Positions 5,462 to 25,605 of a stretch of DNA of 25,605 nucleotides are shown here, in pieces. The stretch lies in sequence record SRR31156797_3177. One strand, given 5' to 3'. A program made the position numbers and the translations under genes. The notes below the pieces were generated by a model. That model was not told where the DNA came from, ran no database searches, and worked only from the letters and a program-made list of their open reading frames with translations. Position 1 is the first letter of the stretch; each line of letters starts with the position of its first letter.

Positions 5462-6928
<1,467 letters not shown>

Positions 6929-7810: not shown

Positions 7811-7828
7811 AAGACTCTGTCCTTATGA

Positions 7829-9352: not shown

Positions 9353-9356
9353 TTGA

Positions 9357-9905
9357 CTAATCTCTCCCCTTGATAGATTCTTTTAATCCATTAAGTTGTG
9401 TCTTTATACTTCCGTCCAGTACCAAATCACCAACCTTTGCGATGATGCCACCGATTATCGTCGGATCGACCTCGGTCTGAAGTATAACCTTATTACCTGT
9501 AATTTTTTCTAAAGTAGCCTGGATACTTTTTTGCAGTTTGCTATCCAGTTCTACGGCAGAGACGACAGAACCATGACTGATGTTCTGATCCATGTCCACC
9601 ATGACTTGTATTTCGCTAGCTATATCAGGCAAGATGTCCGCTCTCTTTTTCTCAATCAACAAGTTAAGAAAACTAGACATTGTTGCATCTGCCTTTGCAT
9701 TTTTGGCAATTTGTGCCATCACTTTTTGCCGTGCATCAAGAGGATACAAAGGATTTGTCAACGCATCCCTGACACCAACGGCACTGTCATCGTACAATGC
9801 TGCGATAGCAGCTAGCAGCTCACTGTATTCTTCATTTTTCCCCTGCTCTTTACCCAAAGAAAAAAGCGCCTTTGCATAACGGCGTGCTAGAATTGTATTT
9901 CTCAC
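9357..9905 (-). CDS. atpH: F1Fo ATP synthase delta subunit
   Basis: [22 protein letters not shown]. The GTG start overlaps the atpF TGA stop (GTGA). Confidence 0.96.
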
Positions 9906-10648
9906 TGTACCGTACCCACTCTTTCAAGGAACTGTTCTGTTATCGTCACCTGATCTGCTGGAGTGAGATTGGAAACGATTAACTCCTCAGCCATTGCAGC
10001 TGCCTGCTCTGCAACCTCGTCACGTAACATCCGCTTTGCATCCTCCAGTTCACCTTGAATGGAAGATTCAGCCTGACGTTTAATATCTTCAGCTGCCTGT
10101 TCAGCCTCAGCGAGAATACGTTTCTTTTCATTCTCAGCTTGGGCAATTGCTTTCTCTACGACACGGTCCATTTCTTCTTCCATGCCAGCAAGCCGTGTCT
10201 CAAACTCCTTAAATTCAGCCTGAGCATCATCGCGTTTTGCCTCAAGTTCCTGCAGCTCTTCTTTTATTTGTTTTTGGCGACCAGAGAGCCCTGTAGCAAT
10301 TGGTTTGGCTAGGAACTTAACGAGCAAAATTACCAAGGCGATAAAGTTAACTGTTCTCCAAAAAAGGTCTTTCAGCTTTGCTGGAGCAAGCGATCCGCCA
10401 TGTACTTCTCCATGTTCACCTGCTGCATCAGGGGCGGCAGCGTGAGCGTCATCCTGGCGTGTAACTGCTCCTGCTGTTGCATGGCCTGCGGCTTCACCAT
10501 GGGATTCCACTGCAGCAGCTTCAGCATGAACAGCAGTTTTTCCACTCTCGTCGTGGCTTGGTGCTGAAGCCATGACAATCGATGCCGCGCCTGAAAACAG
10601 CAACAGCAACAGAGTAGGTACAATAATTCCGACAATACGAGATTTCAT
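9902..10648 (-). CDS. atpF: Fo subunit b with a long N-terminal extension
   Basis: Membrane anchor WRTVNFIALVILLVKFLAKPI at about residue 97, followed by an E/K/A-rich coiled coil. About 90 extra N-terminal residues. Located directly upstream of atpH. Confidence 0.93.
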   Translation of the reverse strand: MKSRIVGIIVPTLLLLLFSGAASIVMASAPSHDESGKTAVHAEAAAVESHGEAAGHATAGAVTRQDDAHAAAPDAAGEHGEVHGGSLAPAKLKDLFWRTVNFIALVILLVKFLAKPIATGLSGRQKQIKEELQELEAKRDDAQAEFKEFETRLAGMEEEMDRVVEKAIAQAENEKKRILAEAEQAAEDIKRQAESSIQGELEDAKRMLRDEVAEQAAAMAEELIVSNLTPADQVTITEQFLERVGTVQ

Positions 10649-11076
10649 GCTTCCAAGCTCCTCCCAAGTATCTTTCCGGCCATATCTCTAGCAAACCCTT
10701 CTGTTTTTGCCTGCAGGTCTCCTCTAGCAGCTTCAACCTGAGAGCGTATTTCCGCCATTTGTTTCTCTTTTTCGCCGTCTGATTCCTGACGAATAGCGGC
10801 GAGTTTTTCTGCTCCTGCAGCCTGCGCGCTTGCTCGAGCCGCATCCAGTGCCTTTTTGGCCTTGCCGCTGCCCTCACGCATTTTTTTGTCCAAATCAAGC
10901 TGTCGACTCCTTGCCCTTTGTTCCAACTGGGCAACCTCATCGTGCATGGAATCTACCTTTTGCTTCCTTTTTTCAAGGATCCCCAGCACCGGCTTGTACA
11001 AAATTGCATTGAGCACCAGCATCAACACAATCATGTTGATGATATGTATTACCATAGTAATATCAATTGAAATCAT
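10645..11076 (-). CDS. atpF: Fo subunit b' (second peripheral-stalk b-type subunit)
   Basis: 143 aa with an N-terminal TM segment (IINMIVLMLVLNAILYKPV) and a coiled coil. ATGA overlap with the next gene, and a GAGGAG SD upstream. Confidence 0.92.
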   Translation of the reverse strand: MISIDITMVIHIINMIVLMLVLNAILYKPVLGILEKRKQKVDSMHDEVAQLEQRARSRQLDLDKKMREGSGKAKKALDAARASAQAAGAEKLAAIRQESDGEKEKQMAEIRSQVEAARGDLQAKTEGFARDMAGKILGRSLEA

Positions 11077-11151
11077 ACCAACTACTCCTCATCTCAAGAA
11101 GAAAACAGGCCATAACTCAGAAAGTGAATGGCGGCTCATATTACGACAGGA

Positions 11152-11180
11152 TTTCTACTTAAAAATCCTCTCACTGTCAA
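11152..11180 (-). promoter_or_regulatory. Putative sigma70 promoter of the atp operon
   Basis: Minus strand TTGACA (11180-11175), 17 nt spacer, TAGAAA (11157-11152), about 75 nt upstream of the atpF' start. The -35 is perfect and the -10 is imperfect. An inverted repeat AGGATTT-N8-AAATCCT (11148-11169) overlaps it. Confidence 0.5.
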
Positions 11181-11261
11181 TTCATTTTAAATAAAACTTA
11201 TATGTTTTTTCAGTTCTGCTTACCACTGGGCAACAAACACGGAATACAGATGACTTCAGAG

Positions 11262-11304
11262 GGGTAATATTACCCGGAAACAGACCGCAATGGGTAATTA
11301 TTAC
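11262..11304. repeat. Perfect 14-bp palindrome with an imperfect tandem copy (candidate operator sites)
   Basis: GGGTAATATTACCC (11262-11275) and GGGTAATTATTAC (11292-11304), with starts 30 bp apart. Confidence 0.5.
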
Positions 11305-12299
11305 ACAGCTTCACGACCCAACCAAGACACTAATAACGACATCCCTTCAGCTGTACTTACCTGTTCCTGGTAACCAAGTATATGCTTTGCCTTGTCGTGA
11401 TTGAACCAGTGCGAATGTGCCAATTGGTGAGCAAGAAAACGTGTCATTTTAGGCTCCGTTTTACATCCAACCAAGCCAAATACGCCCTCAAGAAGTGCTC
11501 CAGCCAGGTAAGCTAACCTAAACGGTACCTGTTTAGACACCTCCTCAATGCCAACCCTTGCAAACAGACTGTTGATCCACTCCCAAAGGTGCACCGGCTG
11601 CTCTTGCCCAATGAAAAATGCCTCCCCACCAGCGGAACCACTGGCGTGCAGATTTTCTGCAGCAAGAATATGAGCATGGACAACATTATCTATATAACTG
11701 ATATCGACGATATTGTCTCCCTTGCCTACAATTTTAAGCTTTCCCCCCCTACCTCGTTCAAGTAACCGTGGAATAAGGTGCTGATCCCCTGGCCCCCATA
11801 CAAGGTGTGGACGGATTGCTGCAGTCCGCAGTCCTTTGCCATCTGCTGCCAGCAGTATTTTTTCCGCTTCAATCTTACTTACGGCATAATGGCACAGTGG
11901 ACGGGCAGCATATGGCAACCGTTCGTCTTTGCCTGCAAGTGGGGCACGATCAAACACAACTGAAGGGGTCGAGGTGTAAACAAGAGCTGAGACGAACGCA
12001 TCCTGGCAAGCAGCAATAACATTTTGGGTGCCCTGGGTGTTTATCGAAAAATATTCTTCTTTAATTCCCCATATTCCTGCCTTCGCAGCGACATGAAAAA
12101 CGGTGTCGATTCCTCTAAAACTTGATTTTAAAAAATCCACATCACGAATATCACCACGATGACACCGCACCCCTAAAGCCGTCAACTGCGGATAGGAATT
12201 ACGACCTACCACAGTGACCTGAAGTCCCTTAGTAACCAATTTGCGTACGATGGCTTGACCAATAAAACCACCGCCACCAGTAACCAGTACATTTTTCAT
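11301..12299 (-). CDS. oleD: 2-alkyl-3-oxoalkanoate reductase OleD (extended SDR, 3-beta-HSD-like)
   Basis: TGGGGFIG, FHVAAKAG, YTSTPSVV, catalytic YAVSK, RPHLVWGPGD, YIDN. Fourth gene of an oleABCD run. Confidence 0.9.
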   Translation of the reverse strand: MKNVLVTGGGGFIGQAIVRKLVTKGLQVTVVGRNSYPQLTALGVRCHRGDIRDVDFLKSSFRGIDTVFHVAAKAGIWGIKEEYFSINTQGTQNVIAACQDAFVSALVYTSTPSVVFDRAPLAGKDERLPYAARPLCHYAVSKIEAEKILLAADGKGLRTAAIRPHLVWGPGDQHLIPRLLERGRGGKLKIVGKGDNIVDISYIDNVVHAHILAAENLHASGSAGGEAFFIGQEQPVHLWEWINSLFARVGIEEVSKQVPFRLAYLAGALLEGVFGLVGCKTEPKMTRFLAHQLAHSHWFNHDKAKHILGYQEQVSTAEGMSLLVSWLGREAV

Positions 12300-12355
12300 A
12301 AAATATAGATATACACGTTATTAAGCTTATGTCCTGACCAGGTCATCGTTACTCA

Positions 12356-13996
12356 TCAATCATGACACCCGACTTTACGTCCGGCCCAAAGAGCAAGCTG
12401 CTCACGGAAAATTTTAGCATTATGTCTAATATCAACAGGAAAACCGGGGTGGACAAGAAAGGTCTCTATCTCTTGGGTGATAGTGTTTGCAGCGGCTAAG
12501 GACTTGAGTTGCTGAAACAAGATTTCTTGGTGACGATTTTTCTGATTAAGCTCAACAATTAACACTGGCTTTTGCTTCCCTTTTTTTCCAACCCCTACAA
12601 GAGCCGAACGAAACACTGACGGATGTTCATTAAAAATTGCCTCACAGGGAATAGTGTATAAAATTCCAAGGTCCGTAAAAACCCTGTGTGCCTTGCGCCC
12701 ACAAAACCATAAACGTCCTTGGTCATCAAAGTAGCCCATATCCCCCATCCGGTGCCAAAACGTTTGCCCGTCAACAATTTTTGAATTGGCATTTTCTTGG
12801 GTATTACTGTCATAGGCTTTAGTAACCACCGGGCCCTTAACGACAATTTCCCCAATTTCACCGGTACCCAGTTCAACAGCTTTATTCCACTCAAATAACG
12901 GTCCTTCACAGGGAGTGATAACTTTAATCGTAATCCCAGGTAAAGGCTTGCCAACACAGGTCCCTCGTCCCCGCTGAGTCTGCTGCCAGGTTTCGTGGAC
13001 AACCTCATGACCCTCTATTGCTGCTATGGGAAGGCTTTCTGTGGCACCATAGGGCGTAAATACCTGCCCATCATTCTCCATTATCTGTTGCAGGCTCTGG
13101 GTAAGCGTCCCGGGAACGGGAGCACCAGCCATGAGAATCTTTTTCACAGGCAGTTTGATCCCGTTTTCCAGACAATATCGGCTGACTACACTCCAGATGG
13201 CGGGAGAGCCAAAAGAATAGGTGACGTCATACTCCAAAATGGATTTAACGAACTTCTCGGGGGTAACTTTTGCAGGTCGGGTCGGATCCATGTCCGGAAT
13301 AACAGCTGTCGCTCCCAAGGCAATTGAAAAGAGGCCGAATAATGGAAATCCTGGTTGATCGATATCTCCTTCTCCGATGCCAAAGTAATCCCTGATCAAC
13401 TCCAGTTGAGCATGAAAAATGCCATGTGTATACTGGACGCCCTTTGGAGGTCCAGTGGATCCGGTGGTAAAGATAATGGCTGCCAAATCATCGACATCGG
13501 CTTTGAAATGCGGGAGTTCAGGCCTGAACATTTTTGTATTAGAAGCATCAATTTCTTTCAGACAAGGTCCCTGCCAAAATATAGAATTTCCGACACAAAT
13601 ACTGGTGCGAAGTGACACAAAGGGTTTATAAAAAATTTTACTGAAATAAATTGCTTTGGGAATACCAATCAAAATATCTGGCCTGACAGCACCAATGCAA
13701 CGCAATAAATTCCTATATCCCATTCCTGGATCAATCAGGATAACCACCGCTCCAAGTTGAAACAGAGAAAAAGTCAGGCATATGAACTCAACCGACGGCT
13801 TAACCATCAGCATGACTCTGTCCCCTTTCTTTACTCCAAGCTCATGAATTTCTCCGACATAATCATTGGCAATGGCTGACAGCTCTTGAAATGACCAAGA
13901 CTGCCAGCCGCCCTTACACGGAGCAGCAAGCCCTCTCTTGTTTTTCAGTTTCTGAGCAACCTGTTCAAGAACATTCCCGATATTATAATCTATCAT
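12356..13996 (-). CDS. oleC: Olefin beta-lactone synthetase OleC (ANL / AMP-dependent ligase family)
   Basis: LIDPGMG, AMP-binding FTTGSTGPPKG, TPYGATE, WHRMGD, WFCGRKAHRV and the OleC-type C-terminal PVDIRHNAKI. Start set at ATG 13996 after a GAGGGG SD. Confidence 0.92.
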   Translation of the reverse strand: MIDYNIGNVLEQVAQKLKNKRGLAAPCKGGWQSWSFQELSAIANDYVGEIHELGVKKGDRVMLMVKPSVEFICLTFSLFQLGAVVILIDPGMGYRNLLRCIGAVRPDILIGIPKAIYFSKIFYKPFVSLRTSICVGNSIFWQGPCLKEIDASNTKMFRPELPHFKADVDDLAAIIFTTGSTGPPKGVQYTHGIFHAQLELIRDYFGIGEGDIDQPGFPLFGLFSIALGATAVIPDMDPTRPAKVTPEKFVKSILEYDVTYSFGSPAIWSVVSRYCLENGIKLPVKKILMAGAPVPGTLTQSLQQIMENDGQVFTPYGATESLPIAAIEGHEVVHETWQQTQRGRGTCVGKPLPGITIKVITPCEGPLFEWNKAVELGTGEIGEIVVKGPVVTKAYDSNTQENANSKIVDGQTFWHRMGDMGYFDDQGRLWFCGRKAHRVFTDLGILYTIPCEAIFNEHPSVFRSALVGVGKKGKQKPVLIVELNQKNRHQEILFQQLKSLAAANTITQEIETFLVHPGFPVDIRHNAKIFREQLALWAGRKVGCHD

Positions 13997-14008
13997 GACC
14001 CCTCTCAA

Positions 14009-14866
14009 TTATTGTTCCAGGAAACCTTTAATTAGAGGAAAAATATCTGGTAACGCATCTTCTAGTACGTAGTGCCCAGCCTCAGGAAAATAATGTCCTT
14101 GGGCATCTGGAAAACGAGCGAGCCATTCGTCATAAAAATGCCGGGTAAAACAAAAATCCTTCCCCCCCCAACAGATAAGCATGGGATGCTGTTGCAATCG
14201 TTCAAGGGATCGTTCAACTTCGACCAGACAGTTCCATGAAGGGTGATCTGCTGTTAATGGTATATCCTGGACAAATCTGAGAATCGCAATTCTATTTTTC
14301 CAGCTATCATAGGGGGCTAAAAAACCAGCTGCCACATCCCTGTGCATTTTTTTGGTCACAGCCATAAAAAGAGCGGCCCGGGCAAACCCGTTAAGCCCAC
14401 GGACCAAAAAATCGCCGATAACCGGCCAACGGCAGACAGCAATGCGAAATGGTATTCGCTTTGACCTGAAAGCAGCTGTATTCAAGACTACCACCTTCTT
14501 TACAATCTCAGAATTTCTCCCAGCCCATCCCATGCCTATTGCCCCACCCCAATCGTGGACCACCAGTATACACTCCTTAATCTGTAAATGGGCTAAAAGG
14601 GCTTCAAGGTTGGCAATATGATTTTGAAGGGAATAGTCATACTGCAAGGGCTTATCAGAAAAACCGCACCCAAGGTGATCGGGGACGATTAAACGAAAAT
14701 AACCAGAAAGCTGAGAAACCAGTTTCCGGTAAAGATAAGACCAGGAAGGATTCCCGTGAACACAGACAACCACTGGCCCTTCCCCTTCATCAAGGTATGC
14801 CATTCCCCCCCCACCTACCCTGAATCGTCTGGGAGTAAATGGATACTCTACAAGTTGGTGCATCAT
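14009..14866 (-). CDS. oleB: beta-lactone decarboxylase OleB (haloalkane-dehalogenase-like alpha/beta hydrolase)
   Basis: HGNPSWS, PDHLGCGFSDKP, nucleophile elbow HDWGG, GHYVLED. Lies between oleA and oleC. The start is ATG 14866 or 14863. Confidence 0.9.
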   Translation of the reverse strand: MMHQLVEYPFTPRRFRVGGGGMAYLDEGEGPVVVCVHGNPSWSYLYRKLVSQLSGYFRLIVPDHLGCGFSDKPLQYDYSLQNHIANLEALLAHLQIKECILVVHDWGGAIGMGWAGRNSEIVKKVVVLNTAAFRSKRIPFRIAVCRWPVIGDFLVRGLNGFARAALFMAVTKKMHRDVAAGFLAPYDSWKNRIAILRFVQDIPLTADHPSWNCLVEVERSLERLQQHPMLICWGGKDFCFTRHFYDEWLARFPDAQGHYFPEAGHYVLEDALPDIFPLIKGFLEQ

Positions 14867-14868
14867 GG

Positions 14869-15903
14869 TTACCACTCTATGCCAAGCATCAGCGAATTAA
14901 TCCCTGAGCCTATTCCAAGTAAGGCTGCTTTTTGGCCTGCTGCAAGCTTGCCCTGTTCAATCCCCATCGCCATGGTTACAGGTGCTGACACAGAACCTAC
15001 ATTACCTAGGACTGGCAGGGTTTCAAAATTTTTACGAGGATCCAGCTCCAATCGTGTGAAAAGAGCCTGAGCATGCGCTTTCCCTACCTGGTGACAAAAA
15101 AAGCGGTCGATGTCCTCTCCTGACCAACCAAGCTCACGTTGAAACCCGTGCCAACAACCGACTGCAGTTTCAATCCCCTGAAGTAACAGCTCCTCAGAAT
15201 CAGTGGACATCAATGTGCCCTGTTCGGAGTTTTGCCCCCCCTGGCAAAGATGATTATAGGCTGTATTGGCCCTACAGCTACCGCCTATCAAAGAATGACC
15301 TGTATCGAGAACACGCTTATCTGACATAACAATAGCCACCGCACCAGAACCAATGGTAAGAGAGGCAAACAAAGGTTTTACACTCTTCCTGGTAAGAGAT
15401 CTTTCCTCAAGCATGTGCCGCATGGTCGACTCAACCAAGTCCTCTGCAGTTTCTCCGGCAACAATCACCCCTGAGCGAACCTGCCCAAGCTCAATCATAT
15501 TGGCAAGCATGATCATGCCGTTCAGAAATCCAAGGCAAGCATTGGAAAGATCAAATAAATGGCAGGCATTGGGAAGTTCCAAAGACTGATGGACAAATGC
15601 TGCTGTGGCAGGTTCCATCATGTCCCGACTTACAGAGGTAAAAATAAGACAACCGATATCAGCTCTATCCACGCCAGAACGTTCAAGAGCCGCCTTTCCT
15701 GCCTGAGCAGCCCCTTCACTTGGTCTAGAGCCTTTATTCCACAAACGCCTGCTTTTGATACCGCTCATTAACTCCAGCCGACCGTGTGGGAGTTTCAACC
15801 GCTCATACAAGGGGGCAAGACGGCCTTCGATATCATCTGAGGTAAGAGTGATGGGTGGCAGCGCATACCCAAATTCATGCAGACAAACATTTGAAAATTG
15901 CAT
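14869..15903 (-). CDS. oleA: Head-to-head acyl condensing enzyme OleA (thiolase / KAS III fold)
   Basis: OleA-type catalytic set: Glu in EPATA, Cys in NACLGF, His in HQVG, Asn in GNVGS. Also ASLTIGSGA and the C-terminal GIGSGIN..W. Confidence 0.92.
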   Translation of the reverse strand: MQFSNVCLHEFGYALPPITLTSDDIEGRLAPLYERLKLPHGRLELMSGIKSRRLWNKGSRPSEGAAQAGKAALERSGVDRADIGCLIFTSVSRDMMEPATAAFVHQSLELPNACHLFDLSNACLGFLNGMIMLANMIELGQVRSGVIVAGETAEDLVESTMRHMLEERSLTRKSVKPLFASLTIGSGAVAIVMSDKRVLDTGHSLIGGSCRANTAYNHLCQGGQNSEQGTLMSTDSEELLLQGIETAVGCWHGFQRELGWSGEDIDRFFCHQVGKAHAQALFTRLELDPRKNFETLPVLGNVGSVSAPVTMAMGIEQGKLAAGQKAALLGIGSGINSLMLGIEW

Positions 15904-15945
15904 TATCTATGAGGTGATAAATTGAAATTAAACGGCTTTAAGTTA

Positions 15946-16188
15946 TTAGTCTTCAGGTGGATAGAACCCTTGAGCCCAGGTTAATAAAAGGGCTGCAAGA
16001 GCGACATCGTCGAGGATACCCACAACCGGCACCCATTCTGGAATAATATCATAGGGAGAAATTACATACAGCAACCCGCTGCCAAGAATTATTTTAACGT
16101 ACAGCGGTGTCTCTTTAGAGAAAAAGACAGCAACGGCATGTCTGGCCATCTGCACAACTCTATTCAGCATGTTTCCCCGCGACTGCAT
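15946..16188 (-). CDS. YkvA / DUF1232 family small membrane protein
   Basis: LLYVISPYDIIPEWVPVVGILDD matches the DUF1232 pattern Y..SP.D.IPD.iP..G.lDD. Alternative start at ATG 16170. Confidence 0.85.
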   Translation of the reverse strand: MQSRGNMLNRVVQMARHAVAVFFSKETPLYVKIILGSGLLYVISPYDIIPEWVPVVGILDDVALAALLLTWAQGFYPPED

Positions 16189-16224
16189 TCATATACGGTG
16201 CTGACCTTACCAGGCTACCTCTTT

Positions 16225-17025
16225 TCAGATGGAGGCTTTGGCTACAATCTCAGCATCAAAATAATTCATTCCCATGCCAGCATCGACTACTAAGCATTGA
16301 CCATTAATTCCAGAGGATCTAGGAGACAGTAAAAAGGCCGCAACATTTGCGGCTTCATCAGTTTTCAGTGCTTTTTTTCGCAGTGTCGCCTTTTCAGCAA
16401 ATAGATAACTGTCAATATAGCCTGGAATGCCTGCAGAAGCAGAAGTCTTCAACAAGCCCGGACACACAGCATTAAATCTGACTTCAGAAAAAGCGGAAAA
16501 ACTCTTTGCCAAAAAACAGATTGAGGATTCCAAAGCAGCCTTCACTGGTGCCATGTAGCCATAATTTTCAGCAGCCATTCGAGTAGTAGAGATGGAGATG
16601 GTTACGAGGGCAGCCTGTTTAGCAAGCAATGATCGAAAATGATTTGCAATTGAAATAAAGGAAAAACAACTGATATCAACCGCCTGGAGGAAATCTCTTT
16701 TGAGTGTTTCGTGAAAGGGTTTGAGGCCTTCAGAATAATTAGCAAATGCTATTGAGTGGACAATACCATCCACAGGACCATCAAGACCGCGTTCAATTTG
16801 ATCCCGAACAGCAATAATATTTTCTTCATTTTCGACATCACAAATAAAAACTTTGCTTTCCGGAAAAAGCTTTGCCGCCGTCTCTGCTCGCTGTTCAGAT
16901 CTCACTACATGGATGACCTCAGCACCAGCTTCAACCAGTACCCGACCGATGCGGCAGGCAACAGATTTTTTATTGGCTAGTCCAAAAATAATAATTTTAC
17001 GCCCTGTTACACCTAAAAAATCCAC
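16225..17025 (-). CDS. fabI: Enoyl-ACP reductase, FabI-like (cluster-specific paralog)
   Basis: [19 protein letters not shown], catalytic Y-x2-M-x3-K (YGYMAPVK), KAALES, VDAG. The GTG start abuts the fabZ stop. Confidence 0.85.
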
Positions 17026-17484
17026 TTAATCCCCTTTGAGTGCGCAGGCAAACTCAACCTGCACTGCAATTTTACCACGAACTCTGACATTTCCTTTCAA
17101 AAACCAGGCAGTTCCAAGTCTTTCGACTAAGCTTGCAGCAATTTCAATTGTGTCTCCAGGGCCAACTTCACGCTTAAACCTGGCATTCAAAATTCTTGTT
17201 AACACCGGAATGCTGCCGACTTGCTTTGGTTCGCCTTTTTGCTGCTGCTTATGCATCAATTCACTGATATAAACTGCTCCAGCCTGAAACACTGCCTCAC
17301 ACAGCAGCACTCCCGGCATAATCGGATAATCGGGATAATGTCCCCGAAAAAGGTCCAGGTTTTCAGGAATCGTCTTCTTTGCCTGAATCCCATCTTCGTT
17401 GATATCAGTAATTTCATCCAGCCAAAGAAAAGGAGGTCGATGGGGAATTCTGGAATGAAGATATTGTTGGTCACTTATTTCCAT
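17026..17484 (-). CDS. fabZ: 3-hydroxyacyl-ACP dehydratase, FabZ-like
   Basis: IPHRPPFLWLD and FRGHYPDYPIMPGVLLCEA (His/Glu dyad), ARFK..V.PGD. TAATG overlap with fabG. Confidence 0.88.
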   Translation of the reverse strand: MEISDQQYLHSRIPHRPPFLWLDEITDINEDGIQAKKTIPENLDLFRGHYPDYPIMPGVLLCEAVFQAGAVYISELMHKQQQKGEPKQVGSIPVLTRILNARFKREVGPGDTIEIAASLVERLGTAWFLKGNVRVRGKIAVQVEFACALKGD

Positions 17485-18224
17485 TACAGCCCTCCGGTAA
17501 CCTCAAGCACAGCACCATTGATGTACGTGGCATTGTCACTGGCAAGAAATAAAACCGCATCAGCCACCTCTTGAGGAGTGCCGAAACGCCGTTGCGGCAC
17601 CATCTTTTTATATTCTTTGAGCTGATTCTCGTTAAGGTCATCAATAAAATCAGTGGCAATAAAACCCGGTGATACACAATTGGCCGTAATTTTTCGTTTG
17701 CCCACTTCTTTTGAAAGTGATTTCATCAGGCCGACCTGGCCTGCCTTTGATGCAGCATAATTGGCTTGACCGGCAAACCCAAGATGCCCCATGGGTGAGG
17801 TAATAAAAACAATCCGACCATACTTCTGTTTCAGCATGAGAGGCAGTACGCATTTAGACATGATATAGCCGCCAGTGAGATTGACATCAATAACGCGACG
17901 CCAGTCCTCTTCTTTCATCATAGCCACTACAGCATCACGCCGGACCCCGGCATTGTTAACCAGGATGTCCACGGTATCATACCTATCTTCCACCTCGGCA
18001 AAAAAAACAGCAACGGCTTCATAGTCACTCACATCGAGTTGCTGAAGCAACAGGCGTCCATCAAAACGAGCACACTCCTGTTCCAACTGATTTGCGGCCT
18101 CTTTATTACCACCATAAACACCAAGAACCTCAGCACCACCGGCAAGCAGTGACAGCGTGATTGCCTTTCCAATGCCACGGGTTGCCCCGGTCACAACAGC
18201 TTTCTTTCCCTTAAAATCAGCCAT
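17484..18224 (-). CDS. fabG: 3-oxoacyl-ACP reductase, FabG-like
   Basis: TGATRGIG, LVNNAG, GQANYAASK, PGFIATD. Confidence 0.9.
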   Translation of the reverse strand: MADFKGKKAVVTGATRGIGKAITLSLLAGGAEVLGVYGGNKEAANQLEQECARFDGRLLLQQLDVSDYEAVAVFFAEVEDRYDTVDILVNNAGVRRDAVVAMMKEEDWRRVIDVNLTGGYIMSKCVLPLMLKQKYGRIVFITSPMGHLGFAGQANYAASKAGQVGLMKSLSKEVGKRKITANCVSPGFIATDFIDDLNENQLKEYKKMVPQRRFGTPQEVADAVLFLASDNATYINGAVLEVTGGL

Positions 18225-18283
18225 ATCCCTACACAGTAATATTCAAGTATGCATTCCGGTTATCCTTACAGAAGCCAACGCCC

Positions 18284-19696
18284 TCATCCCTGCTCGCGCA
18301 GGTAGCCGTCAACATCATGAGCTGCAATCACGCCATAGTTAATGGCTCCCAGCCAACCACTCATAATAATCCCCACAGAACCAACATGATAAAGGCCGGG
18401 TAAGGCCTTGTGGAGTGATCTGGAGATGTCAAGACCTTCAAATTTGGTCCCAAAAGAGGTTCCCCTGGTATGCAAGGTATATCGGTTAAAGGTTCTGGGA
18501 GTAGCTGATTCAACTGTATCAATTTTGCCTCTTATATCAGGAACATATCGTTCCAGATCAACTAGACACCTCTCGATCATTGCCTGCTTTGCCTGCTGAT
18601 ACTCGTTTGGTTCCAACCCAGCCCAATCTGCATAATTGGCGTTCATCGACGCGACGATAGTATAATCAGGTTTTTCCGGTCTTGTTTTGGGATAATATAC
18701 TGAAAAAGTTCGGCTCCTCGTCTCCATACCCCGCATCTCCTCGGCAGAGTATTCCTCTGCGGTGGAGGTAAACAACAGGTCGCCGATATCGTCAATGGTC
18801 TCTCCCTTACGAATACCAAAATACACCTGACAACTGGAGTTATTCACCTCAACCTTATCATGCTTGGCTAGGAAATCAGGGGAAAACATCTCTCTTCCGG
18901 CAAGGTTATCAATGGTATTGGTAATGCCAGCATTGGAAACAACAGCAGTTGCACCTACCTGTTTCCCGTTGACAATAACCCCACAGGTTTTACCATGATC
19001 GACCAGAACCTTTTCCACCTTGGCACCGGTACAAATTGTAACCCCCTTTTGCTGCAATTCTTTTGCCATCAGGCCAATAAGCGTATCTGTTCCGCCTTCA
19101 AAAGTATAGACTCCCCGGTTCATGAAATTTGAAAACACAATGCCGTAGGTTATTGCAGGTTCATCCATAGTAGACCCATTTGCATACGAAATGGGCTCCA
19201 TAAGCAGGCGGTGTATATCGGTCCGGCCCGGAAAAAACGTATCAAACAATTCTCTGGTGGTCATTGTTTGATCGTCGTAGAAATTCATGCCGTCGACAGT
19301 GGTAAAAAAATCATTGACGGTCTGAGTGGCGACACCAAAAGTCTCATGGAGGATACGAATAAAATCCTCTTTGCTAAAAGTCGTCGTCAGGGAGAATTGG
19401 GGGTTATCAAAAACAATCTTCGGCAATTGGACAATCCGGTCACGAATCTCTTTACCCCAGTATTTTTTACAGGTCTTCACCATCCCGTAGGGAAATCCGT
19501 GCAGGGAAACATCAAAAATATGCCCCCCCCGTTTAAACCAAGTCGCTAAACCACCAAGCTGGATATGGTGTTCAAGCAGCAACACTGAGTGTCCGGCATT
19601 GGCTAGCCTGTTTGCGCATGTCATTCCGCCAAGTCCTGACCCAATGACAACCACGTCATAGCAGTTTTCAAGCGTATCAAAAGAAGAATATTTCAT
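18284..19696 (-). CDS. Phytoene desaturase (CrtI) / retinol-saturase family FAD-dependent oxidoreductase, paralog 2
   Basis: Rossmann motif VIGSGLGG, LLLEHHIQLGG, FKRGGHIFDVSLH, FEGG, ATPRTFNRYT..GTSFG, GLYHVG. AAGGA SD upstream. The substrate is unknown. Confidence 0.85.
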   Translation of the reverse strand: MKYSSFDTLENCYDVVVIGSGLGGMTCANRLANAGHSVLLLEHHIQLGGLATWFKRGGHIFDVSLHGFPYGMVKTCKKYWGKEIRDRIVQLPKIVFDNPQFSLTTTFSKEDFIRILHETFGVATQTVNDFFTTVDGMNFYDDQTMTTRELFDTFFPGRTDIHRLLMEPISYANGSTMDEPAITYGIVFSNFMNRGVYTFEGGTDTLIGLMAKELQQKGVTICTGAKVEKVLVDHGKTCGVIVNGKQVGATAVVSNAGITNTIDNLAGREMFSPDFLAKHDKVEVNNSSCQVYFGIRKGETIDDIGDLLFTSTAEEYSAEEMRGMETRSRTFSVYYPKTRPEKPDYTIVASMNANYADWAGLEPNEYQQAKQAMIERCLVDLERYVPDIRGKIDTVESATPRTFNRYTLHTRGTSFGTKFEGLDISRSLHKALPGLYHVGSVGIIMSGWLGAINYGVIAAHDVDGYLREQG

Positions 19697-19726
19697 ATGT
19701 CCTTTATGCTGTTACGTAGCCGTGTC

Positions 19727-19892
19727 TAGGGGCTGCTGGATAATTTCTTTTTCCCCACCTCGGCGTTTTTTTCAAAAAACCAAACTCGCTGCTCGCAAGC
19801 GTAGACTAGACTCCGATACCAATTACATACCAGTGCTTGGTAGCTCTACATCCCCTGCCCTGAGAAAAAAACTATTCTCCAACAGATTCCTA
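19727..19892. mobile_element. Degenerate MITE-like / palindromic repeat element (about 166 bp)
   Basis: The left end TAGGGGCTGCTGGATAATTTCTTTTTCCCCA aligns with the reverse complement of the right end TAGGAATCTGTTGGAGAATAGTTTTTTTCTCA at about 22 of 32 positions by eye. It is bounded by CTAG on the left and CTAA on the right, and no transposase is encoded. Confidence 0.45.
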
Positions 19893-21266
19893 AGAAAGAA
19901 TATGTTGATTAATCACAGTAACGCCACTGAGCATTGCCCCGACAATACCTAAATACCCTTGGTCAGTACCGGCGATAAATAAATTTGGCCAAGGCGTTTT
20001 ACCGTCTTTTATCTTCAGGGGACTCCCATAAATGGCACCTTCTGCCTTCCGGGTAAAACGTTCCACAGTCAGCGGTGTAAAACTATCCTGGTAGACGACA
20101 TTATCACTGTAGGGACCGATAACTTCTTCCGCATTGCTTATCGCAGCCTGGGTCCACTGCTGCTTAAGCTTTTTATATTCAGCAGGCGTTGCAGCTTTCC
20201 AGAGTGCATAATTGGCAGCATTGGTGTTCCTGATCTGAAAACACTCTTCTTTCTCTATCCCTTGGAAATTGTCAGGAAAGCAGATAACCCCCCAAGAAAG
20301 ATCGAGAAATGTCGCCGGTCGCTGATACTGTAACTGCGATTTTTTATTATAAAAAAGGATTGTCGCCGAACTGTCAAGATCCTCTCTTGCCTTTTGATCA
20401 ACCAGGGAAACGGTTTCCATAAAACTCATCCGCCCACCGTATGCCTGCTGCGGTATATCCCAACCGCTGAGCTTTATGGTTTCCGGCATACCTACAGTGG
20501 AAAGTACCGCATCTGCTGTTAAAACCTCGCCATCGGCAAGCCGTATACCTTTAACCGTCCCCATTTCTCTGTGGATTTCTTTCACCAATGCACGGTAACG
20601 GATTTCCCCACCAAAACCTTTAAACTGGTCAAGCAGCATGGTAAGGAATTCTCGAATAGTTCCACCAGGTCGAAAAAAGCCCTCCTCAAAAACAGACCGA
20701 AACATTATCACAAACTGCCCCATGTCCATGTCGTGCTCCTCGGGGTTACCGTATACCATCAACGGCAGCAGTAACATTTCCTCCAACAATGGGTTGCCAA
20801 GAGTTTGTGATAGAAAGCCGCGTGCAGATTTCCATGGTTGCACCGTAAACGGATCATACTCGGCAATCCTTTCTTTTAGGGCAATAAACCTGTCCACACT
20901 ACCTGGGAAAGACCTTGCCACTTCCTGCTCAAGAACCAGGGGATCGTTGGAAAAAAGAAGGGACGCATCGGGGTAGCGTATTTCAGAACCTACCTGCTCA
21001 TGGGTAGCAAATGTTTTTCTAGAAAGTTTGAGTTGGCGGAAAAGGACGTTTAATGGTGCACGCTTATTGCCGGATGCCGCATAGTTGGTCATAGCGTGCA
21101 GCCCGGTTTCCAGTATTTGCCCCTGCCTGAAATAATAGGAATTCAGGCCTCCTGGAATGGTGTGCTGTTCAAGAAGTAATGTCTTGACTCCGAAACGCGC
21201 AGCCCGAATGCCTGCAGCTATTCCAGATAAACCGCCGCCAATGATAATCAGCTGATACTCAGCCAT
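19890..21266 (-). CDS. Phytoene desaturase (CrtI) / retinol-saturase family FAD-dependent oxidoreductase, paralog 1
   Basis: IIGGGLSG, LLLEQHTIPGGL, YFRQGQILETGLH, FTPLTVERFT..GAIYG, NLFIAG..G.LGIVGAMLSG. Start set at ATG 21266 (MAEYQL), just ahead of the Rossmann strand. Confidence 0.85.
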   Translation of the reverse strand: MAEYQLIIIGGGLSGIAAGIRAARFGVKTLLLEQHTIPGGLNSYYFRQGQILETGLHAMTNYAASGNKRAPLNVLFRQLKLSRKTFATHEQVGSEIRYPDASLLFSNDPLVLEQEVARSFPGSVDRFIALKERIAEYDPFTVQPWKSARGFLSQTLGNPLLEEMLLLPLMVYGNPEEHDMDMGQFVIMFRSVFEEGFFRPGGTIREFLTMLLDQFKGFGGEIRYRALVKEIHREMGTVKGIRLADGEVLTADAVLSTVGMPETIKLSGWDIPQQAYGGRMSFMETVSLVDQKAREDLDSSATILFYNKKSQLQYQRPATFLDLSWGVICFPDNFQGIEKEECFQIRNTNAANYALWKAATPAEYKKLKQQWTQAAISNAEEVIGPYSDNVVYQDSFTPLTVERFTRKAEGAIYGSPLKIKDGKTPWPNLFIAGTDQGYLGIVGAMLSGVTVINQHILS

Positions 21267-21339
21267 AGAAAAAAATGGGAAGGAGGGTAAGGGCAGGATT
21301 AACGGGCAGCAATGCCGGCGCAACCCTGCCTGCTCAAGT

Positions 21340-21591
21340 TCAGGCGTCTTTCAGCTTAGGTTCCAAGTAGTTAACACAGCTGGTCAAAGTTGCCAGTTCC
21401 GGATATTCGTCCTCGGGAACCTGCAACTGATACCGCTTTCGCAGTTCCATAACAATATCCAAAAAATCCATTGAGTCTAAATCAAGCTGATCACGTAACG
21501 GCGCATCTGCGTCGAGGTTATCAAATTCTGCTTCTTCGTCAATATCTTCTATTATTTCAAGGATGACATCCTTGATTTCTTCCCGAGTCAT
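21340..21591 (-). CDS. Acyl carrier protein (cluster-specific)
   Basis: 83 aa acidic protein with the phosphopantetheine site LDLDSMDFLDIV. ATG 21591 follows a GGGGATGGAG purine-rich RBS region. Confidence 0.93.
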   Translation of the reverse strand: MTREEIKDVILEIIEDIDEEAEFDNLDADAPLRDQLDLDSMDFLDIVMELRKRYQLQVPEDEYPELATLTSCVNYLEPKLKDA

Positions 21592-21775
21592 ACTCCATCC
21601 CCGTTGGTATTGAAAACTCTTCAAACAGCAGCTATTCAGCCAAGAGTCGTAGTCATAATTTGGAAATCAGCTAAATGGCCAGCGATTAATCTACGATCAT
21701 ACTGACAGCTCTTCCCACCCCCTGCCTATATTAATCAGGCGAGGGACAAAACGGAAAAGCATACCATAAAACACC

Positions 21776-23023
21776 TCAGCCCGCCACAAAACTCTTGACA
21801 ACGACTACTGAATTTATCCCCAGCATGCCAAATGAGTTGTTTAACACAGCATCTACACGAGAAAGTTTTTGCGGTTCACCACTCACCAATCCCTGCATGG
21901 CACAGTCGGGATCCAGCTGGTCAATATTAATGGTCGGGTGCACGTAATTATCGGCAAAAGAAGGAAGGTTGCCGGCAAGCTCAAGTACCCCTGCGGCGCC
22001 CATCGCATGCCCTATGCTAGATTTGGTATTATTGATATAGGTGGATGAGCAGTCGGCAAAAGTCTTTCTGATAGCCGAACATTCCTCTACATCTCCCTGA
22101 CGGGTGCCGGTTGCATGGGTGTTGACAATCGTGACATCACAAGCATTCATCCCTGCACGCTTAAGTGCCATTTCCATGCACTCCTGCTGCCGTGGCCCAT
22201 ACGGCAACACAAAATCCCTGGCATCGGAATTCATGGCATATCCTGCGAGTTCTCCATAAATTTTTGCTCCTCTTTTCAACGCACGGTCCAATCTTTCCAG
22301 GGTAAAGACACATCCCCCTTCTGAAATAACTATCCCGTTCCTCTCCATATCAAAGGGACGACTGGCGCGTACGGGGTCGGGGTGTTCAGCCAAGGCCCCC
22401 TGAGACTTAAAAGAAGCGAAAATACCAAAAGATCCTGTACACTCTGAAATCCCGCCGCAAAGAGCAAAATCAACTTCTCCCAGCCTCAGCATCTGGGCTC
22501 CCTGAATAAGAGCAGCATTCCCAGCTGCACATGCAGCACCAATTGTATAATGGGGACCGGTAATACCAAGATTCATGGTAATCTCACCGGCAGGATTATT
22601 AAGGACGGTTCGCGGGTTATGGTGGTGGGTCCAGTAGTCTACATCATAATCGAACTTGCTTATATTATAGACTTCATTTTCGGTTTCCACCGTCCCGTGC
22701 TCCGTGAGACCGAGATAGACTCCGGTTGCGCTGCGGTCATAGTCATCAAAGGTTATCCCAGAGTCGACCAAAGCCTCATTAGCACAGTACACAGAAATGC
22801 ATCCGGCCCGGCTTCCGCGCTTGTTCTCCTTCTTTTTACGGTACTTTGTCTCATCAAACGTACAAATACCGGCCGGGTGGACCCCCATATACCGAAGATC
22901 CAAAGTTGTTATGCCGCTTTTGCCGGCAAGAAGATTGGCTCTAAACTGGTCGAGCGAAGATGCACCAGGTGCGGCAAGCCCCACTCCGGTGATGACAATA
23001 CGTTGAGAATCAGACTGTTGCAT
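21776..23023 (-). CDS. fabF: beta-ketoacyl-ACP synthase, FabF/FabB-like (divergent)
   Basis: RIVITGVG, catalytic Cys (AACAAG), SRPFD..RNG...EG, His (NTHATGT), KS.IGH, NSFG. Start set at ATG 23023 (MQQSDSQR). The longer ORF-track start runs through the alaS terminator. Confidence 0.88.
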   Translation of the reverse strand: MQQSDSQRIVITGVGLAAPGASSLDQFRANLLAGKSGITTLDLRYMGVHPAGICTFDETKYRKKKENKRGSRAGCISVYCANEALVDSGITFDDYDRSATGVYLGLTEHGTVETENEVYNISKFDYDVDYWTHHHNPRTVLNNPAGEITMNLGITGPHYTIGAACAAGNAALIQGAQMLRLGEVDFALCGGISECTGSFGIFASFKSQGALAEHPDPVRASRPFDMERNGIVISEGGCVFTLERLDRALKRGAKIYGELAGYAMNSDARDFVLPYGPRQQECMEMALKRAGMNACDVTIVNTHATGTRQGDVEECSAIRKTFADCSSTYINNTKSSIGHAMGAAGVLELAGNLPSFADNYVHPTINIDQLDPDCAMQGLVSGEPQKLSRVDAVLNNSFGMLGINSVVVVKSFVAG

Positions 23024-23095
23024 GTGCTTACTATTATTTCGATGCTGCATCACTATCAATAAAAGTGCAGCAGAATCCGAGTTATGGTTTATGCG

Positions 23096-23132
23096 AAAAA
23101 CGCATATACGACCTCGGTCGCATATGCGTTTT
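23096..23132 (-). terminator. Hairpin / probable intrinsic terminator after alaS
   Basis: AAAACGCATAT-a-CGACC-tc-GGTCG-c-ATATGCGTTTT (23097-23132). The single a/c mismatch becomes a G-U pair on the minus-strand RNA, which ends in U5. It lies 45 nt downstream of the alaS stop. Confidence 0.75.
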
Positions 23133-23177
23133 ACAGCGTTTAACAAACAACTAATAATTTAAATAATTAACGGCAGG

Positions 23178-25605
23178 TTACTTGAGCAGCTCCTCAATGA
23201 CAGCAGGCACCGTACTGACTGCCTCATCGAGTTTATCCGGCATACTGCCACCAGCCTGGGCCATGTCTGGTCGCCCACCGCCTTTGCCGCCGACAATAAC
23301 GGCAACTTTATTGACAATATCGCCCGCTTTTATCCTGCCGGTCAAATCTTTACTCACCACAGCGAGCAAAGCCGCTTTCCCACCAAATTCTCCGCCAAGT
23401 ACGGCAATACCAGTCTGCATCTTATCTCTGACCTTATCGCCTATCTCGCGTAATGTTTTGGGGGAATTCAGCTTCACCGTACTGGCAACAACCTGCACCC
23501 CTTTCACGTCGACTGCACTAGCAAGCAGTTGATCCAGGTTGGAAAGTGTCATTGTGGCAGTGACTGCCGCAAGCTCCTTTTCCAGCGCTTTTTGCCGCTT
23601 TTGCAAATTAAGCACCTTTTCTGCAGCTCCCTCCAGTGGACTTCCCACGGTCTTACACAACTCCGTTGCATCCTGTTCAAATCTGTGGAGCCACTCCATG
23701 GCTTGCCTGCTCGTAACAGCCTCAATGCGCCTTACTCCGGCAGCAATACCTGTTTCATGAACCACCTTAAACAGCCCGACATCGCCGGTTGCACCGGCAT
23801 GTGTCCCTCCACAGAGTTCCTTACTGAAATCGCCGATGGTTATCACCCTGACATCATCACCGTATTTTTCACCAAAAAGCGCTGTCGCGCCCCCTTCAAT
23901 GGCTTTTTCCCTGTCAAGGACAGCCGAAGACACAGGGATATTCTGTCGAACTTTAGCATTAACGATTTGCTCTACTTTCACAATTTCTTCAGAGGAGACT
24001 GGAGAGAAATGGGTAAAATCAAAACGTAACCGTTTATCGTCTACCAGTGAACCAGCCTGCTTTACATGTTCCCCCAAGACCTGCTTTAAAGCCGCATGCA
24101 AGAGATGGGTGGATGTATGGTTCGAGGCAATCTCTGCACGACGCTCGGCAACCTGAAGATTAACCTGCTGGCCCTGCTCAAGTGTTCCCTCCACAATCTC
24201 TCCCTGATGAAGGATTATCCCCTCGACAGGCGAAACTGTTTGTGTTACCTGAAAACGGCCTCCCGGCCAGGATATTTCCCCTTGATCACCTACCTGACCG
24301 CCAGATTCGGCATAAAACGGTGTTTGCCTGCAAAAAATCTGCAGCTTTGCGCCAGCTGTCCCGCTTTCAACCAACTCCCCTTCCTGATCAATGATTCCGT
24401 CAACTACAGAATCAGTTGCAATAGAAGAATAACCTGTAAACTCAGCACGCTTTCCCTGGTTCACCAGATTCAGCACGCCTTTATCAAGGTGGTCCACATC
24501 ACAACCCTTCCAGGATTTCCTTGACTGCTCGCGCTGCTGCTCCATTGCTTGGCTAAAACCTGGCTCATCAAATGCTATCCCCCTTTCTATCGCAGCATCG
24601 CGGACAATGTCGACGGGGAATCCATAGGTGTCATACAACTTAAAAATAAAAGCGCCATCTATAATAGCCGAATCTCCAGACTCCGCTTGTAATCGCTGTA
24701 TTTCTTCATCTAGCTTTTGCAGCCCTCTATCCAATGTCATACCAAAACGCTGTTCCTCATTGGCAACAACCTTGCCCAACAAATCCTTCGTGTCATCAAG
24801 GTGTGGATAAGCTTCGACCATTGCCTCTGTAACAAGCGCACAGACTCCTGGAAAAAACGATTCCAAGCCTAATGCCCTTCCGTAGCGGATGGCCCGACGC
24901 ATGATTCGACGTAGGACATACCCTCGGCCTTCATTGGACGGCAGCACGCCGTCACCCACAAGGAAAGTAGTTGCCCGTGCATGGTCTGCAATAACACGCA
25001 GGGATACATCGTCACGATCATTGTCATGGTATTTTTTACCGGCCAAATGGGCAATATGATCAATAATCGAGCTAAAAAGATCGCAGTCAAAATTGTTATA
25101 TTTGCCCTGTAAAACAGCTGTTACTCGCTCAAGTCCCATACCTGTGTCGATAGAAGGACTTGGCAACGGTGTCATTTTACCGTTCTCGTCTCTGTAGAAC
25201 TGCATAAAAACCAGGTTCCATAACTCCAGGAAACGGTCACAATCACAGCCCAGCTTACAATCAGGACGGCCGCACCCAGCCTTTACGCCCTGGTCTATAT
25301 GAATTTCAGAACAGGGGCCGCACGGTCCGGTATCGCCCATGGCCCAGAAATTCTCTTCTTCACCCATGCGTACAATTCTTCCCGGCGGCAGCTCTTTGAC
25401 CTGCTTCCACAGTTCGTCGGCCTCATCATCGTCATCATAGATGGAAACCCATAACTGCTGTGGGTTCAGACCCAGCTCAACAGTCAAAAAATCCCAAGCA
25501 TAGGCAATGGCTTCCTTTTTGAAATAATTACCAAACGAAAAGTTGCCTAACATTTCGAAAAAGGTATGGTGACGGGCTGTATATCCTACATTTTCAAGGT
25601 CATTA
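23178..25605 (-). CDS. alaS: Alanine--tRNA ligase (5' end outside the window)
   Basis: The frame stays open to the window edge (NDLENVGYTARHHTFFEMLGNFSFG). Also GPCGPCSE, IDTGMGLER, YDTYGFP, editing-domain HTSTH and ELCGGTH, and GGKGGGRPDMAQAGG. Confidence 0.98.
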   Translation of the reverse strand, partial: NDLENVGYTARHHTFFEMLGNFSFGNYFKKEAIAYAWDFLTVELGLNPQQLWVSIYDDDDEADELWKQVKELPPGRIVRMGEEENFWAMGDTGPCGPCSEIHIDQGVKAGCGRPDCKLGCDCDRFLELWNLVFMQFYRDENGKMTPLPSPSIDTGMGLERVTAVLQGKYNNFDCDLFSSIIDHIAHLAGKKYHDNDRDDVSLRVIADHARATTFLVGDGVLPSNEGRGYVLRRIMRRAIRYGRALGLESFFPGVCALVTEAMVEAYPHLDDTKDLLGKVVANEEQRFGMTLDRGLQKLDEEIQRLQAESGDSAIIDGAFIFKLYDTYGFPVDIVRDAAIERGIAFDEPGFSQAMEQQREQSRKSWKGCDVDHLDKGVLNLVNQGKRAEFTGYSSIATDSVVDGIIDQEGELVESGTAGAKLQIFCRQTPFYAESGGQVGDQGEISWPGGRFQVTQTVSPVEGIILHQGEIVEGTLEQGQQVNLQVAERRAEIASNHTSTHLLHAALKQVLGEHVKQAGSLVDDKRLRFDFTHFSPVSSEEIVKVEQIVNAKVRQNIPVSSAVLDREKAIEGGATALFGEKYGDDVRVITIGDFSKELCGGTHAGATGDVGLFKVVHETGIAAGVRRIEAVTSRQAMEWLHRFEQDATELCKTVGSPLEGAAEKVLNLQKRQKALEKELAAVTATMTLSNLDQLLASAVDVKGVQVVASTVKLNSPKTLREIGDKVRDKMQTGIAVLGGEFGGKAALLAVVSKDLTGRIKAGDIVNKVAVIVGGKGGGRPDMAQAGGSMPDKLDEAVSTVPAVIEELLK

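Follow-up and report, generated by a model that had tools for sequence, protein, structure and literature searches.

A co-inherited pair of CrtI-fold flavoproteins in an accessory fatty-acid synthase cassette, a probable alternative to Pfa as supplier of OleABCD

The routes to polyunsaturated acyl chains known to us are those of the O2-dependent desaturases and of the Pfa megasynthase. In D. psychrophila, the hydrocarbons C31:8 (4%) and C31:9 (1%) were reported in the absence of a polyunsaturated fatty acid (PUFA) polyketide synthase, and three pfam01593 genes located in type II fatty-acid synthase (FASII) clusters, the adjacent DP2405 and DP2406 and also DP1860, were proposed to act as desaturases in a novel anaerobic PUFA pathway (Rattray 2009, PMC2649909). 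In Pfa producers, OleA joins two 16:4n-3 chains borne on acyl carrier protein (ACP) (PMC6463001), and pfa-like clusters have been linked with ole genes (Shulse and Allen 2011, PMC3098273). Here we analyze a stretch of 25,605 nucleotides from record SRR31156797_3177 (the window, in its full length), in which two CrtI-like flavoproteins, PDa and PDb, are encoded among fatty-acid synthase genes. A first, sequence-only reading of this DNA placed the pair between acp and fabG and proposed an uncharacterised, anaerobic tailoring of ACP-bound chains. Its frame proved too narrow: the same run starts at fabF and, past fabG, takes in fabZ, fabI and a set of four ole-like genes, and the Ole hydrocarbons that are the likely end product went unnoticed. 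The restriction to anaerobes was likewise too tight, because the family's source names include Thalassoglobus and Planctomicrobium, which we take to be aerobes.

Such a gene pair, and in broad terms the idea as well, were put forward in 2009 for D. psychrophila (Rattray 2009, PMC2649909), and the proposal of the sequence-only reading is hence not wholly new. The link to the ole genes, the strict pairing of the two flavoproteins and an either-or pattern with Pfa turn a loose suggestion into one that is directly testable. A literature search, mostly outside subscription journals, returned no paper linking the pair to ole genes, showing exclusion of pfa or assaying the enzymes, and no later answer to the occurrence of C31:8 and C31:9 in D. 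psychrophila without a PUFA polyketide synthase. On the basis of gene content, fold, co-inheritance and exclusion with PfaD, we consider it probable that an accessory type II synthase with tailoring by PDa and PDb replaces Pfa as the supplier of polyunsaturated C16 acyl-ACP to OleABCD. The cassette is very likely a dedicated supplier of OleA, PDa and PDb most likely introduce the unsaturation of the chains that OleABCD receives, in an alternative to the Pfa route, and the product is likely to be a methylene-interrupted polyene such as 16:4n-3.

Distribution of the flavoprotein pair, OleA and Pfa

PDa (470 aa, 18284..19696) and PDb (458 aa, 19890..21266, with an ATG at 21266) are both encoded on the minus strand, at the place given by the sequence-only reading (18284..21266), directly downstream of acp (21340-21591) and directly upstream of fabG (17484-18224). 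Both are members of the CrtI/amine-oxidase-fold superfamily (PF01593), exceeding its gathering cut-off of 19.8 bits (48.8 bits for PDa, 53.3 bits for PDb), an assignment shared by alignments, structural models and fold matches. As first noted, the two are very divergent, with 22% identity over 449 columns (BLASTP, E 8e-13), and comparison of their profiles aligns 426 columns (probability 100, E 2.6e-46). PDa is well conserved (53-78% identity across phyla) and PDb is the faster-evolving partner (34-66% identity to family members). Two of the four shared motifs initially listed, GxGxxG and R.G...[DE]..LH, occur as written, and two had been mis-spaced: both proteins contain LLExH...GG, with a spacer of three residues and not two, and TP.T..R[YF]T....G..[FY]G, with four and not two. 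In the family alignments, GxGxxG lies close to the N-terminus (82 of 83 PDa rows, 70 of 74 PDb rows), predicting binding of flavin adenine dinucleotide (FAD), and [DE]..LH is invariant (83/83 and 74/74).

In a quick tree PDa and PDb are each monophyletic, with support of 100 for PDb and 96 for the window-type PDa rows, and they group together against 16 other CrtI-like rows. The old duplication proposed by the sequence-only reading is plausible, the tree support for the grouping being weak (82 in the Shimodaira-Hasegawa-like approximate likelihood ratio test, SH-aLRT). A set of proteins of about 1006-1009 aa with two tandem CrtI-like domains (P0476 and cluster members P0511-P0521; 12 members at 90%) was also recovered; P0476 (1009 aa) was considered as a PDb-PDa fusion and rejected, both of its halves falling outside the PDa and PDb clades in the tree.

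A genome scan of GTDB returned at least 591 PDa relatives, and locus counts are taken from the best 80 of these. The best 80 belong mostly to the Desulfobulbales, with others in the Dehalococcoidia, Opitutaceae, Nitrospinaceae, Phycisphaerales and Muiribacteriota, and the fatty-acid synthase neighborhood of the pair is kept across phyla. Among loci with room, 48 of 51 have fabF, acp and PDb upstream of PDa, and fabZ, fabG (within 5 kb) and fabI lie downstream in 56, 51 and 30 of 66, respectively; of 94 loci with a full-length PDb, 79 have acp immediately in front of it, and 23 of 34 long loci contain an ole gene. Non-adjacent genes are found elsewhere in the genome as cassette-type copies, both for fabI (54-75% identical, 10/10) and for fabF (5/5), and OleA is likewise present where the genes are scattered (5/5). 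Since a housekeeping FabF over the cut-off, separate from the cassette FabF, occurs in all five cassette genomes, the cassette is predicted to be a second, private (accessory type II) fatty-acid synthase.

These loci support the earlier preference for ACP-bound chains, and run contrary to a family found mostly away from ACP and fatty-acid synthase genes. They also bear on the idea that PDa and PDb act on phytoene or another isoprenoid, their position being incidental, which appears highly improbable. Besides the fold and the phytoene desaturase family names used in databases, it can draw on the presence of a PF00494 (phytoene/squalene synthase) gene in 26 of 72 pair-bearing genomes. The remaining 46, including all 15 from the Desulfobacterota, have no PF00494 match, the fatty-acid synthase context is conserved across phyla, and the three best carotenoid models in the NCBIfam scan (isomerase, CrtD and CrtI) reach 46-110 bits against cut-offs of 238-587. 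Furthermore, two anammox genes encoding similarly annotated proteins, at most putative orthologues of PDa and PDb, do not replace CrtI (Javidpour 2016, PMC4790861). Within the window, no phytoene/squalene synthase or prenyltransferase was found among the 16 proteins scanned with Pfam, alaS and five atp subunits having been identified by eye and left unscanned, in agreement with the initial statement that carotenoid and hopanoid genes are lacking.

The case for the cassette as a supplier of OleA comes from a survey of 463 genomes (201 Desulfobacterota, 131 Verrucomicrobiota and 131 Planctomycetota; 460 drawn plus three PDa-bearing seeds), using thresholds of E <= 1e-60 for PDa, E <= 1e-50 for OleA and TIGR02814 for PfaD. 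Genome completeness was not reported, and absence means not found. PDa was detected in 65 genomes, OleA in 99 and PfaD in 41. All 65 PDa genomes contain PDb, and none of the 146 PDa-negative genomes tested does (105 planctomycetes and 41 others, the other 252 lying outside the test). The pair is often retained though unlinked, as in G259, where a single contig carries PDb at 1.49 Mb, PDa at 2.27 Mb and oleA at 2.78 Mb. OleA is present in 62 of the 65 PDa genomes, and PfaD in none of them, nor was PfaA found over the cut-off in the five cassette genomes tested. Conversely, the 99 OleA genomes comprise 62 with PDa only, 34 with PfaD only, none with both and three with neither, one of which (G108) has PfaA over the cut-off. 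By phylum, the counts for PDa only, PfaD only, both and neither are 10, 9, 0 and 2 in the Desulfobacterota, 26, 1, 0 and 0 in the Verrucomicrobiota and, among 51 OleA genomes, 26, 24, 0 and 1 in the Planctomycetota. In these three phyla, OleA thus almost never occurs without one of the two suppliers, the PDa cassette or Pfa; seven genomes, on the other hand, have PfaD and no OleA. Two OleA-like genes with very long branches (G172:C77:6522-7535 and G342:C81:4081-5127) come from genomes with neither supplier over the cut-off, and their products are possibly fed by other synthases.

Several observations count against the cassette as a replacement of Pfa. In a quick OleA tree of 90 rows, drawn from most but not all of the 99 OleA genomes and from two Chloroflexota, the supplier labels require 4 changes against 30.0 in shuffles, and the OleA proteins of PDa and Pfa genomes form largely two clades. 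The exclusion consequently does not amount to 99 independent events, and Fisher p-values are inflated. Each OleA clade mixes three phyla, two Pfa-type OleAs lie on the opposite side on long branches, and the pattern reads, from these sequences, as that of two old mobile modules, each made of an OleA and its own supplier. The PDa genomes G015, G056 and G277, plus G337, have no OleA over the cut-off, although they may be incomplete, and three of the 65 PDa genomes are the seeds of the analysis itself. D. psychrophila is not among the best 120 named PDb relatives, where only a Desulfotalea sp. metagenome-assembled genome and Desulfocapsa sulfexigens appear, and we infer the orthology of DP2405/DP2406 to PDa/PDb. 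Moreover, the isotope data were taken to favor monounsaturated fatty acids as hydrocarbon precursors (Rattray 2009, PMC2649909). Lastly, n-C31:9 is reported in the planctomycetes Lacipirellula, Frigoriglobus and Telmatocola (PMC6995999, PMC7534041, PMC3327967), and these producers can be assigned to neither module from the named matches.

Whole fabF-acp-PDb-PDa-fabG-fabZ-fabI cassettes are present without an OleA over the cut-off in G056 (L081, L082 and L083) and G015 (L084), where they may provide unsaturated chains for another use. G056 also holds two extra lone PDa copies and one PDb, and by eye the L082 copy lies near primase-like, mobile-looking genes. Such cassettes lend some weight to a reading in which the synthase feeds OleA with a chain not of the Pfa type (for instance one with a single or two double bonds, or one that is conjugated or modified in another way) or mainly makes membrane fatty acids. 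No profiled genome is tied directly to a product, and the separate OleA clade of the cassette module could mean a different substrate. This reading is nonetheless quite unlikely in our estimation, since C31:8 and C31:9 are made by D. psychrophila without Pfa (PMC2649909), and C31:9 has been described as frequent in planctomycetes, 50 of whose 51 OleA genomes hold one module or the other.

Candidate chemistry of PDa and PDb

Under the preferred account, in which the cassette supplies OleA with polyunsaturated C16 chains, its own FabF, ACP, FabG, FabZ and FabI would build the acyl-ACP without O2 and hand it to OleABCD for conversion into C31:9 and C31:8 hydrocarbons. FabZ would make trans-2-enoyl-ACP, and PDa and PDb would isomerise its double bond during elongation. 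By chain arithmetic, 16:4n-3 would result from a shift of trans-2 to cis-3 at C6 and C12, a flip of trans-2 to cis-2 at C8 and C14 and, at C4, C10 and C16, full reduction, with the private FabF pulling the unfavorable cis isomers forward. The Pfa route has itself been said, in a statement marked as speculative, to need delta2-cis and delta3-cis isomerisations (PMC4882568). As the cassette provides ketosynthase, ketoreductase, dehydratase and enoyl reductase but lacks a FabA-type isomerase, two missing steps are left facing two unexplained, co-inherited enzymes, which weakly favors isomerases acting within the cycle. The isomerase reading is also favored by redox-neutral precedents in the fold, namely the Propionibacterium acnes fatty-acid isomerase and CRTISO, credited with a redox-neutral cis-trans isomerisation using reduced FAD by the title of a reference cited in PMC4492965. 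That PDa and PDb are redox-neutral isomerases of the trans-2-enoyl-ACP formed by FabZ can still be proposed only tentatively. One 625-aa protein (P0362), in which PDa and FabZ are fused across a compact junction, fits such a role, but is a single record, and the sole related locus found is unfused.

Sequence and fold scores do not separate isomerase, reductase and desaturase routes. The carotenoid isomerase model (CrtH/CRTISO, TIGR02730) is the top NCBIfam match of both proteins, with 110.1 bits for PDa and 65.1 bits for PDb against a cut-off of 586.9, and CrtI (TIGR02734) gives 85.0 and 46.1 bits against 238.1. The isomerase score of PDa is about equal to that for the CrtD desaturase (107.3 bits), both well under their cut-offs. 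No RetSat model is found among the NCBIfam or Pfam matches of either protein. Both predicted structures are confident, with a predicted local distance difference test score (pLDDT) of 92.0 for PDa and 94.4 for PDb, and their best fold match is a desaturase, the gamma-carotenoid desaturase 4REP (PDa: Z 33.0, root-mean-square deviation (rmsd) 3.0, 436 aligned; PDb: Z 31.7, rmsd 3.3, 432 aligned). The fatty-acid isomerase 2B9W matches less closely (PDa: Z 24.0, rmsd 3.6, 388 aligned; PDb: Z 23.9, rmsd 3.8, 385 aligned), and amine oxidases match the models as well as it does. Profile searches found no close relative among solved structures (best E 6.5e-19 and 6.7e-20).

These fold matches, which include the desaturase 5MOG in addition to 4REP, are the natural starting point for the proposal of Rattray 2009 that the proteins are O2-independent desaturases, introducing further double bonds into an already unsaturated acyl-ACP with a quinone or another acceptor. 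The ETGLH motif of rice phytoene desaturase (PDS) aligns with PDb, and in D. psychrophila two monounsaturated fatty acids are depleted in 13C to a similar degree as the C31 hydrocarbons (PMC2649909). The same source notes the difficulty of desaturation for the first bond (PMC2649909). Methylene-interrupted bonds would demand the removal of unactivated hydrogens, for which a flavin seems ill-suited. Carotenoid desaturases, for their part, extend conjugation. Post-synthesis tailoring would, in addition, need no private ketosynthase, ketoreductase, dehydratase or enoyl reductase, and no electron-transfer partner was found among the conserved neighbors, in a search that used window proteins only. 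On balance, we regard desaturation as unlikely.

A reductive route receives a similarly low assessment. Here one or both proteins would resemble RetSat: FabI would be skipped and the resulting conjugated 2,4-dienoyl-ACP reduced in 1,4 fashion, leaving a cis-3 bond, with the partner carrying out the cis-2 step, an arrangement that accounts for the need of two enzymes. The invariant [DE]..LH motif is consistent with this route, as RetSat presumably bears a similar one. PDb relatives, one of which, at 93% identity, is labeled Desulfogranum marinum, are in some cases named all-trans-retinol 13,14-reductase by JGI, and in others phytoene desaturase family; the names, however, are automatic. The retention of FabI in 10 of 10 genomes fits an ordinary cycle, yet the reductive route also uses FabI once.

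Returning to isomerisation, its boldest form would make the cassette a second de novo bacterial route to methylene-interrupted PUFA, with PDa and PDb as programmed isomerases (cis-3 and cis-2 in alternate cycles), Pfa replaced in about two thirds of the sampled Ole-bearing genomes of the three phyla, and free or membrane PUFA possible where OleA is absent. We consider this combined claim doubtful. If true, it would reveal flavin chemistry of a new kind, acting on acyl carrier proteins, account for a lipid marker common among planctomycetes and sulfate reducers, and offer a modular route to omega-3 chains. The cassette is a short candidate, consisting of seven small, soluble-looking proteins (83-470 aa) plus OleABCD, and it occurs in cultured strains, among them Desulfobulbus rhabdoformis DSM 8777 (L027), Desulforhopalus vacuolatus DSM 9700 (L055) and Desulfopila sp. 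IMCC35006 (L015).

Genes of the cassette and its flanks

All genes of the run lie on the minus strand in the order alaS, fabF, acp, PDb, PDa, fabG, fabZ, fabI, DUF1232, four genes in oleABCD order and the atp genes. The private FabF-like ketosynthase (415 aa, 21776..23023) scores 294.7 bits with TIGR03150, under the cut-off of 493.75; it keeps the Cys-His-His motifs and has two extra conserved motifs, TEHG..ETE.E and W.HHHNPRTV (79 rows). The dedicated acyl carrier protein (83 aa, 21340..21591; PF00550, 34.6 bits) carries the motif DSMDFLDIVMEL, and its DSMD site is conserved (83 rows). Downstream of the pair, the FabG-like ketoreductase (17484..18224) scores 280.7 bits with TIGR01830 (cut-off 297.75), and the dehydratase (17026..17484) is of the FabZ type (His/Glu) rather than FabA-like, with 108.6 bits for NF000582 (cut-off 113) against 29.3 bits for the FabA model NF003509 (cut-off 124) and with conserved GHYP and CEa motifs. 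The FabI-like enoyl reductase (16225..17025) is of the cassette type, and FabI models give at most 165.9 bits, each under its cut-off. In three planctomycete loci (L108:11926-12999, L111:13825-15063 and L117:14019-15104), the match to the cassette fabZ is split into two pieces 700-900 bases apart, which indicates that extra sequence has been inserted into the dehydratase gene or between its portions.

A small DUF1232 protein (15946..16188; PF06803, 46.9 bits) is encoded between fabI and oleA in the window and in many Desulfobulbaceae loci. The four genes after it follow the OleABCD order of thiolase-fold condensing enzyme, alpha/beta hydrolase, adenylate-forming enzyme and short-chain dehydrogenase/reductase (SDR). 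The first (14869..15903) exceeds the cut-off of 285 for NF006720 with 439.4 bits; this model is named 3-oxoacyl-ACP synthase III, and we take the match as OleA from general knowledge and from its order with the next three genes. The alpha/beta hydrolase (14009..14875; PF00561, 98.6 bits) is OleB-like by position, its top NCBIfam match being haloalkane dehalogenase NF002938 (152.4 bits, under the cut-off of 241). The OleC-like beta-lactone synthetase (12356..14008) scores 650.6 bits with NF006754, over the cut-off of 478, and 530.9 bits with the olefin beta-lactone synthetase model NF045786, under its cut-off of 900. The OleD-like 2-alkyl-3-oxoalkanoate reductase (11301..12299) has NF042423 (390.1 bits) and NF042422 (352.9 bits) as best matches, under the cut-off of 580. 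The equivalog models that bear the OleC and OleD names refer to Xanthomonas and Shewanella proteins, and the window proteins score under their cut-offs. Opitutaceae-type loci (L066, L077, L078, L080 and L126-L130) are arranged differently, with no adjacent fabG, only oleA and oleB beside fabI, and an SDR gene (25-30% to OleD) divergent from, and head-to-head with, fabF.

The flanks are ordinary, with mutS, an AMIN-domain amidase and atp genes (two b subunits, delta to epsilon) at 49-11076 and alaS at 23178-25604, directly upstream of fabF; alaS and atp neighbors are also found in Desulfobulbaceae loci. Scanning 10900-23400 yielded 30 promoter-like sites against 17.6 +/- 4.6 in shuffles and 20 terminator-like sites against 13.8 +/- 3.7, which is uninformative on co-transcription.

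Comparison with described systems

The closest counterpart of PDa and PDb is the adjacent pfam01593 pair DP2405/DP2406, also located in a FASII cluster, in a Desulfobulbales organism with C31:8 and C31:9 and no PUFA polyketide synthase. The published account differs in that the locus is mixed with radical-SAM clusters and the hydrocarbon is seen as a decarboxylated C32 acid, and ole genes are not mentioned in the passages of that report used here (PMC2649909). A cassette genome contains a further cluster, in which four genes are FabF-like (G001:C137:64305-84257); this may be the counterpart of the other locus in D. psychrophila, for which Rattray drew a comparison with anammox clusters. In Kuenenia, kuste3336 and kuste3607 are "phytoene dehydrogenase-like" pfam01593 genes in FASII clusters (PMC2649909, PMC4790861), and the anammox ladderane cluster comprises amxACP, amxFabZ, a FabF pair, PDH and a B12 radical SAM protein (PMC10139942); both Dietl 2023 (PMC10139942) and a 2026 review (PMC13459092) treat that cluster as unproven. 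The window cassette differs from it in having neither a radical SAM protein nor a non-canonical FabF, its single FabF keeping Cys-His-His. FabZ and ACP lend no support to orthology with the anammox cluster, the window proteins being no closer to 7QV0, 8AYB-D and 7AUF, which we take to be anammox proteins, than to ordinary ones.

The flavoenzymes of the same fold offer a second comparison. PDa and PDb share with CrtI, CrtD, CRTISO-CrtH and PDS the fold (Z 31.7-33.0 to 4REP), the dinucleotide-binding motif and the expectation of a long hydrophobic substrate, but their structural identity is 15-19%, the curated cut-offs are missed widely and no carotenoid genes adjoin them. The P. acnes polyunsaturated fatty acid isomerase 2B9W is likewise a flavoprotein with the amine-oxidase fold, and it shifts a double bond within a fatty acid; it has 11-13% identity to PDa and PDb, presumably acts on free acids and, according to its entry title, gives conjugated products rather than cis bonds on ACP.

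In its linkage to OleABCD, the cassette most resembles the Pfa synthase of Shewanella, Photobacterium and Geobacter bemidjiensis, as both are dedicated ACP-based synthases linked to oleABCD with a predicted hand-off of acyl-ACP to OleA. On the one hand, Pfa is a multidomain synthase, whereas the cassette is made up of discrete type II enzymes. On the other hand, the parts can be placed side by side: FabI in the cassette would take the place of PfaD, and FabZ together with the two flavoproteins would stand for the polyketide synthase-type and FabA-type dehydratase/isomerase domains.

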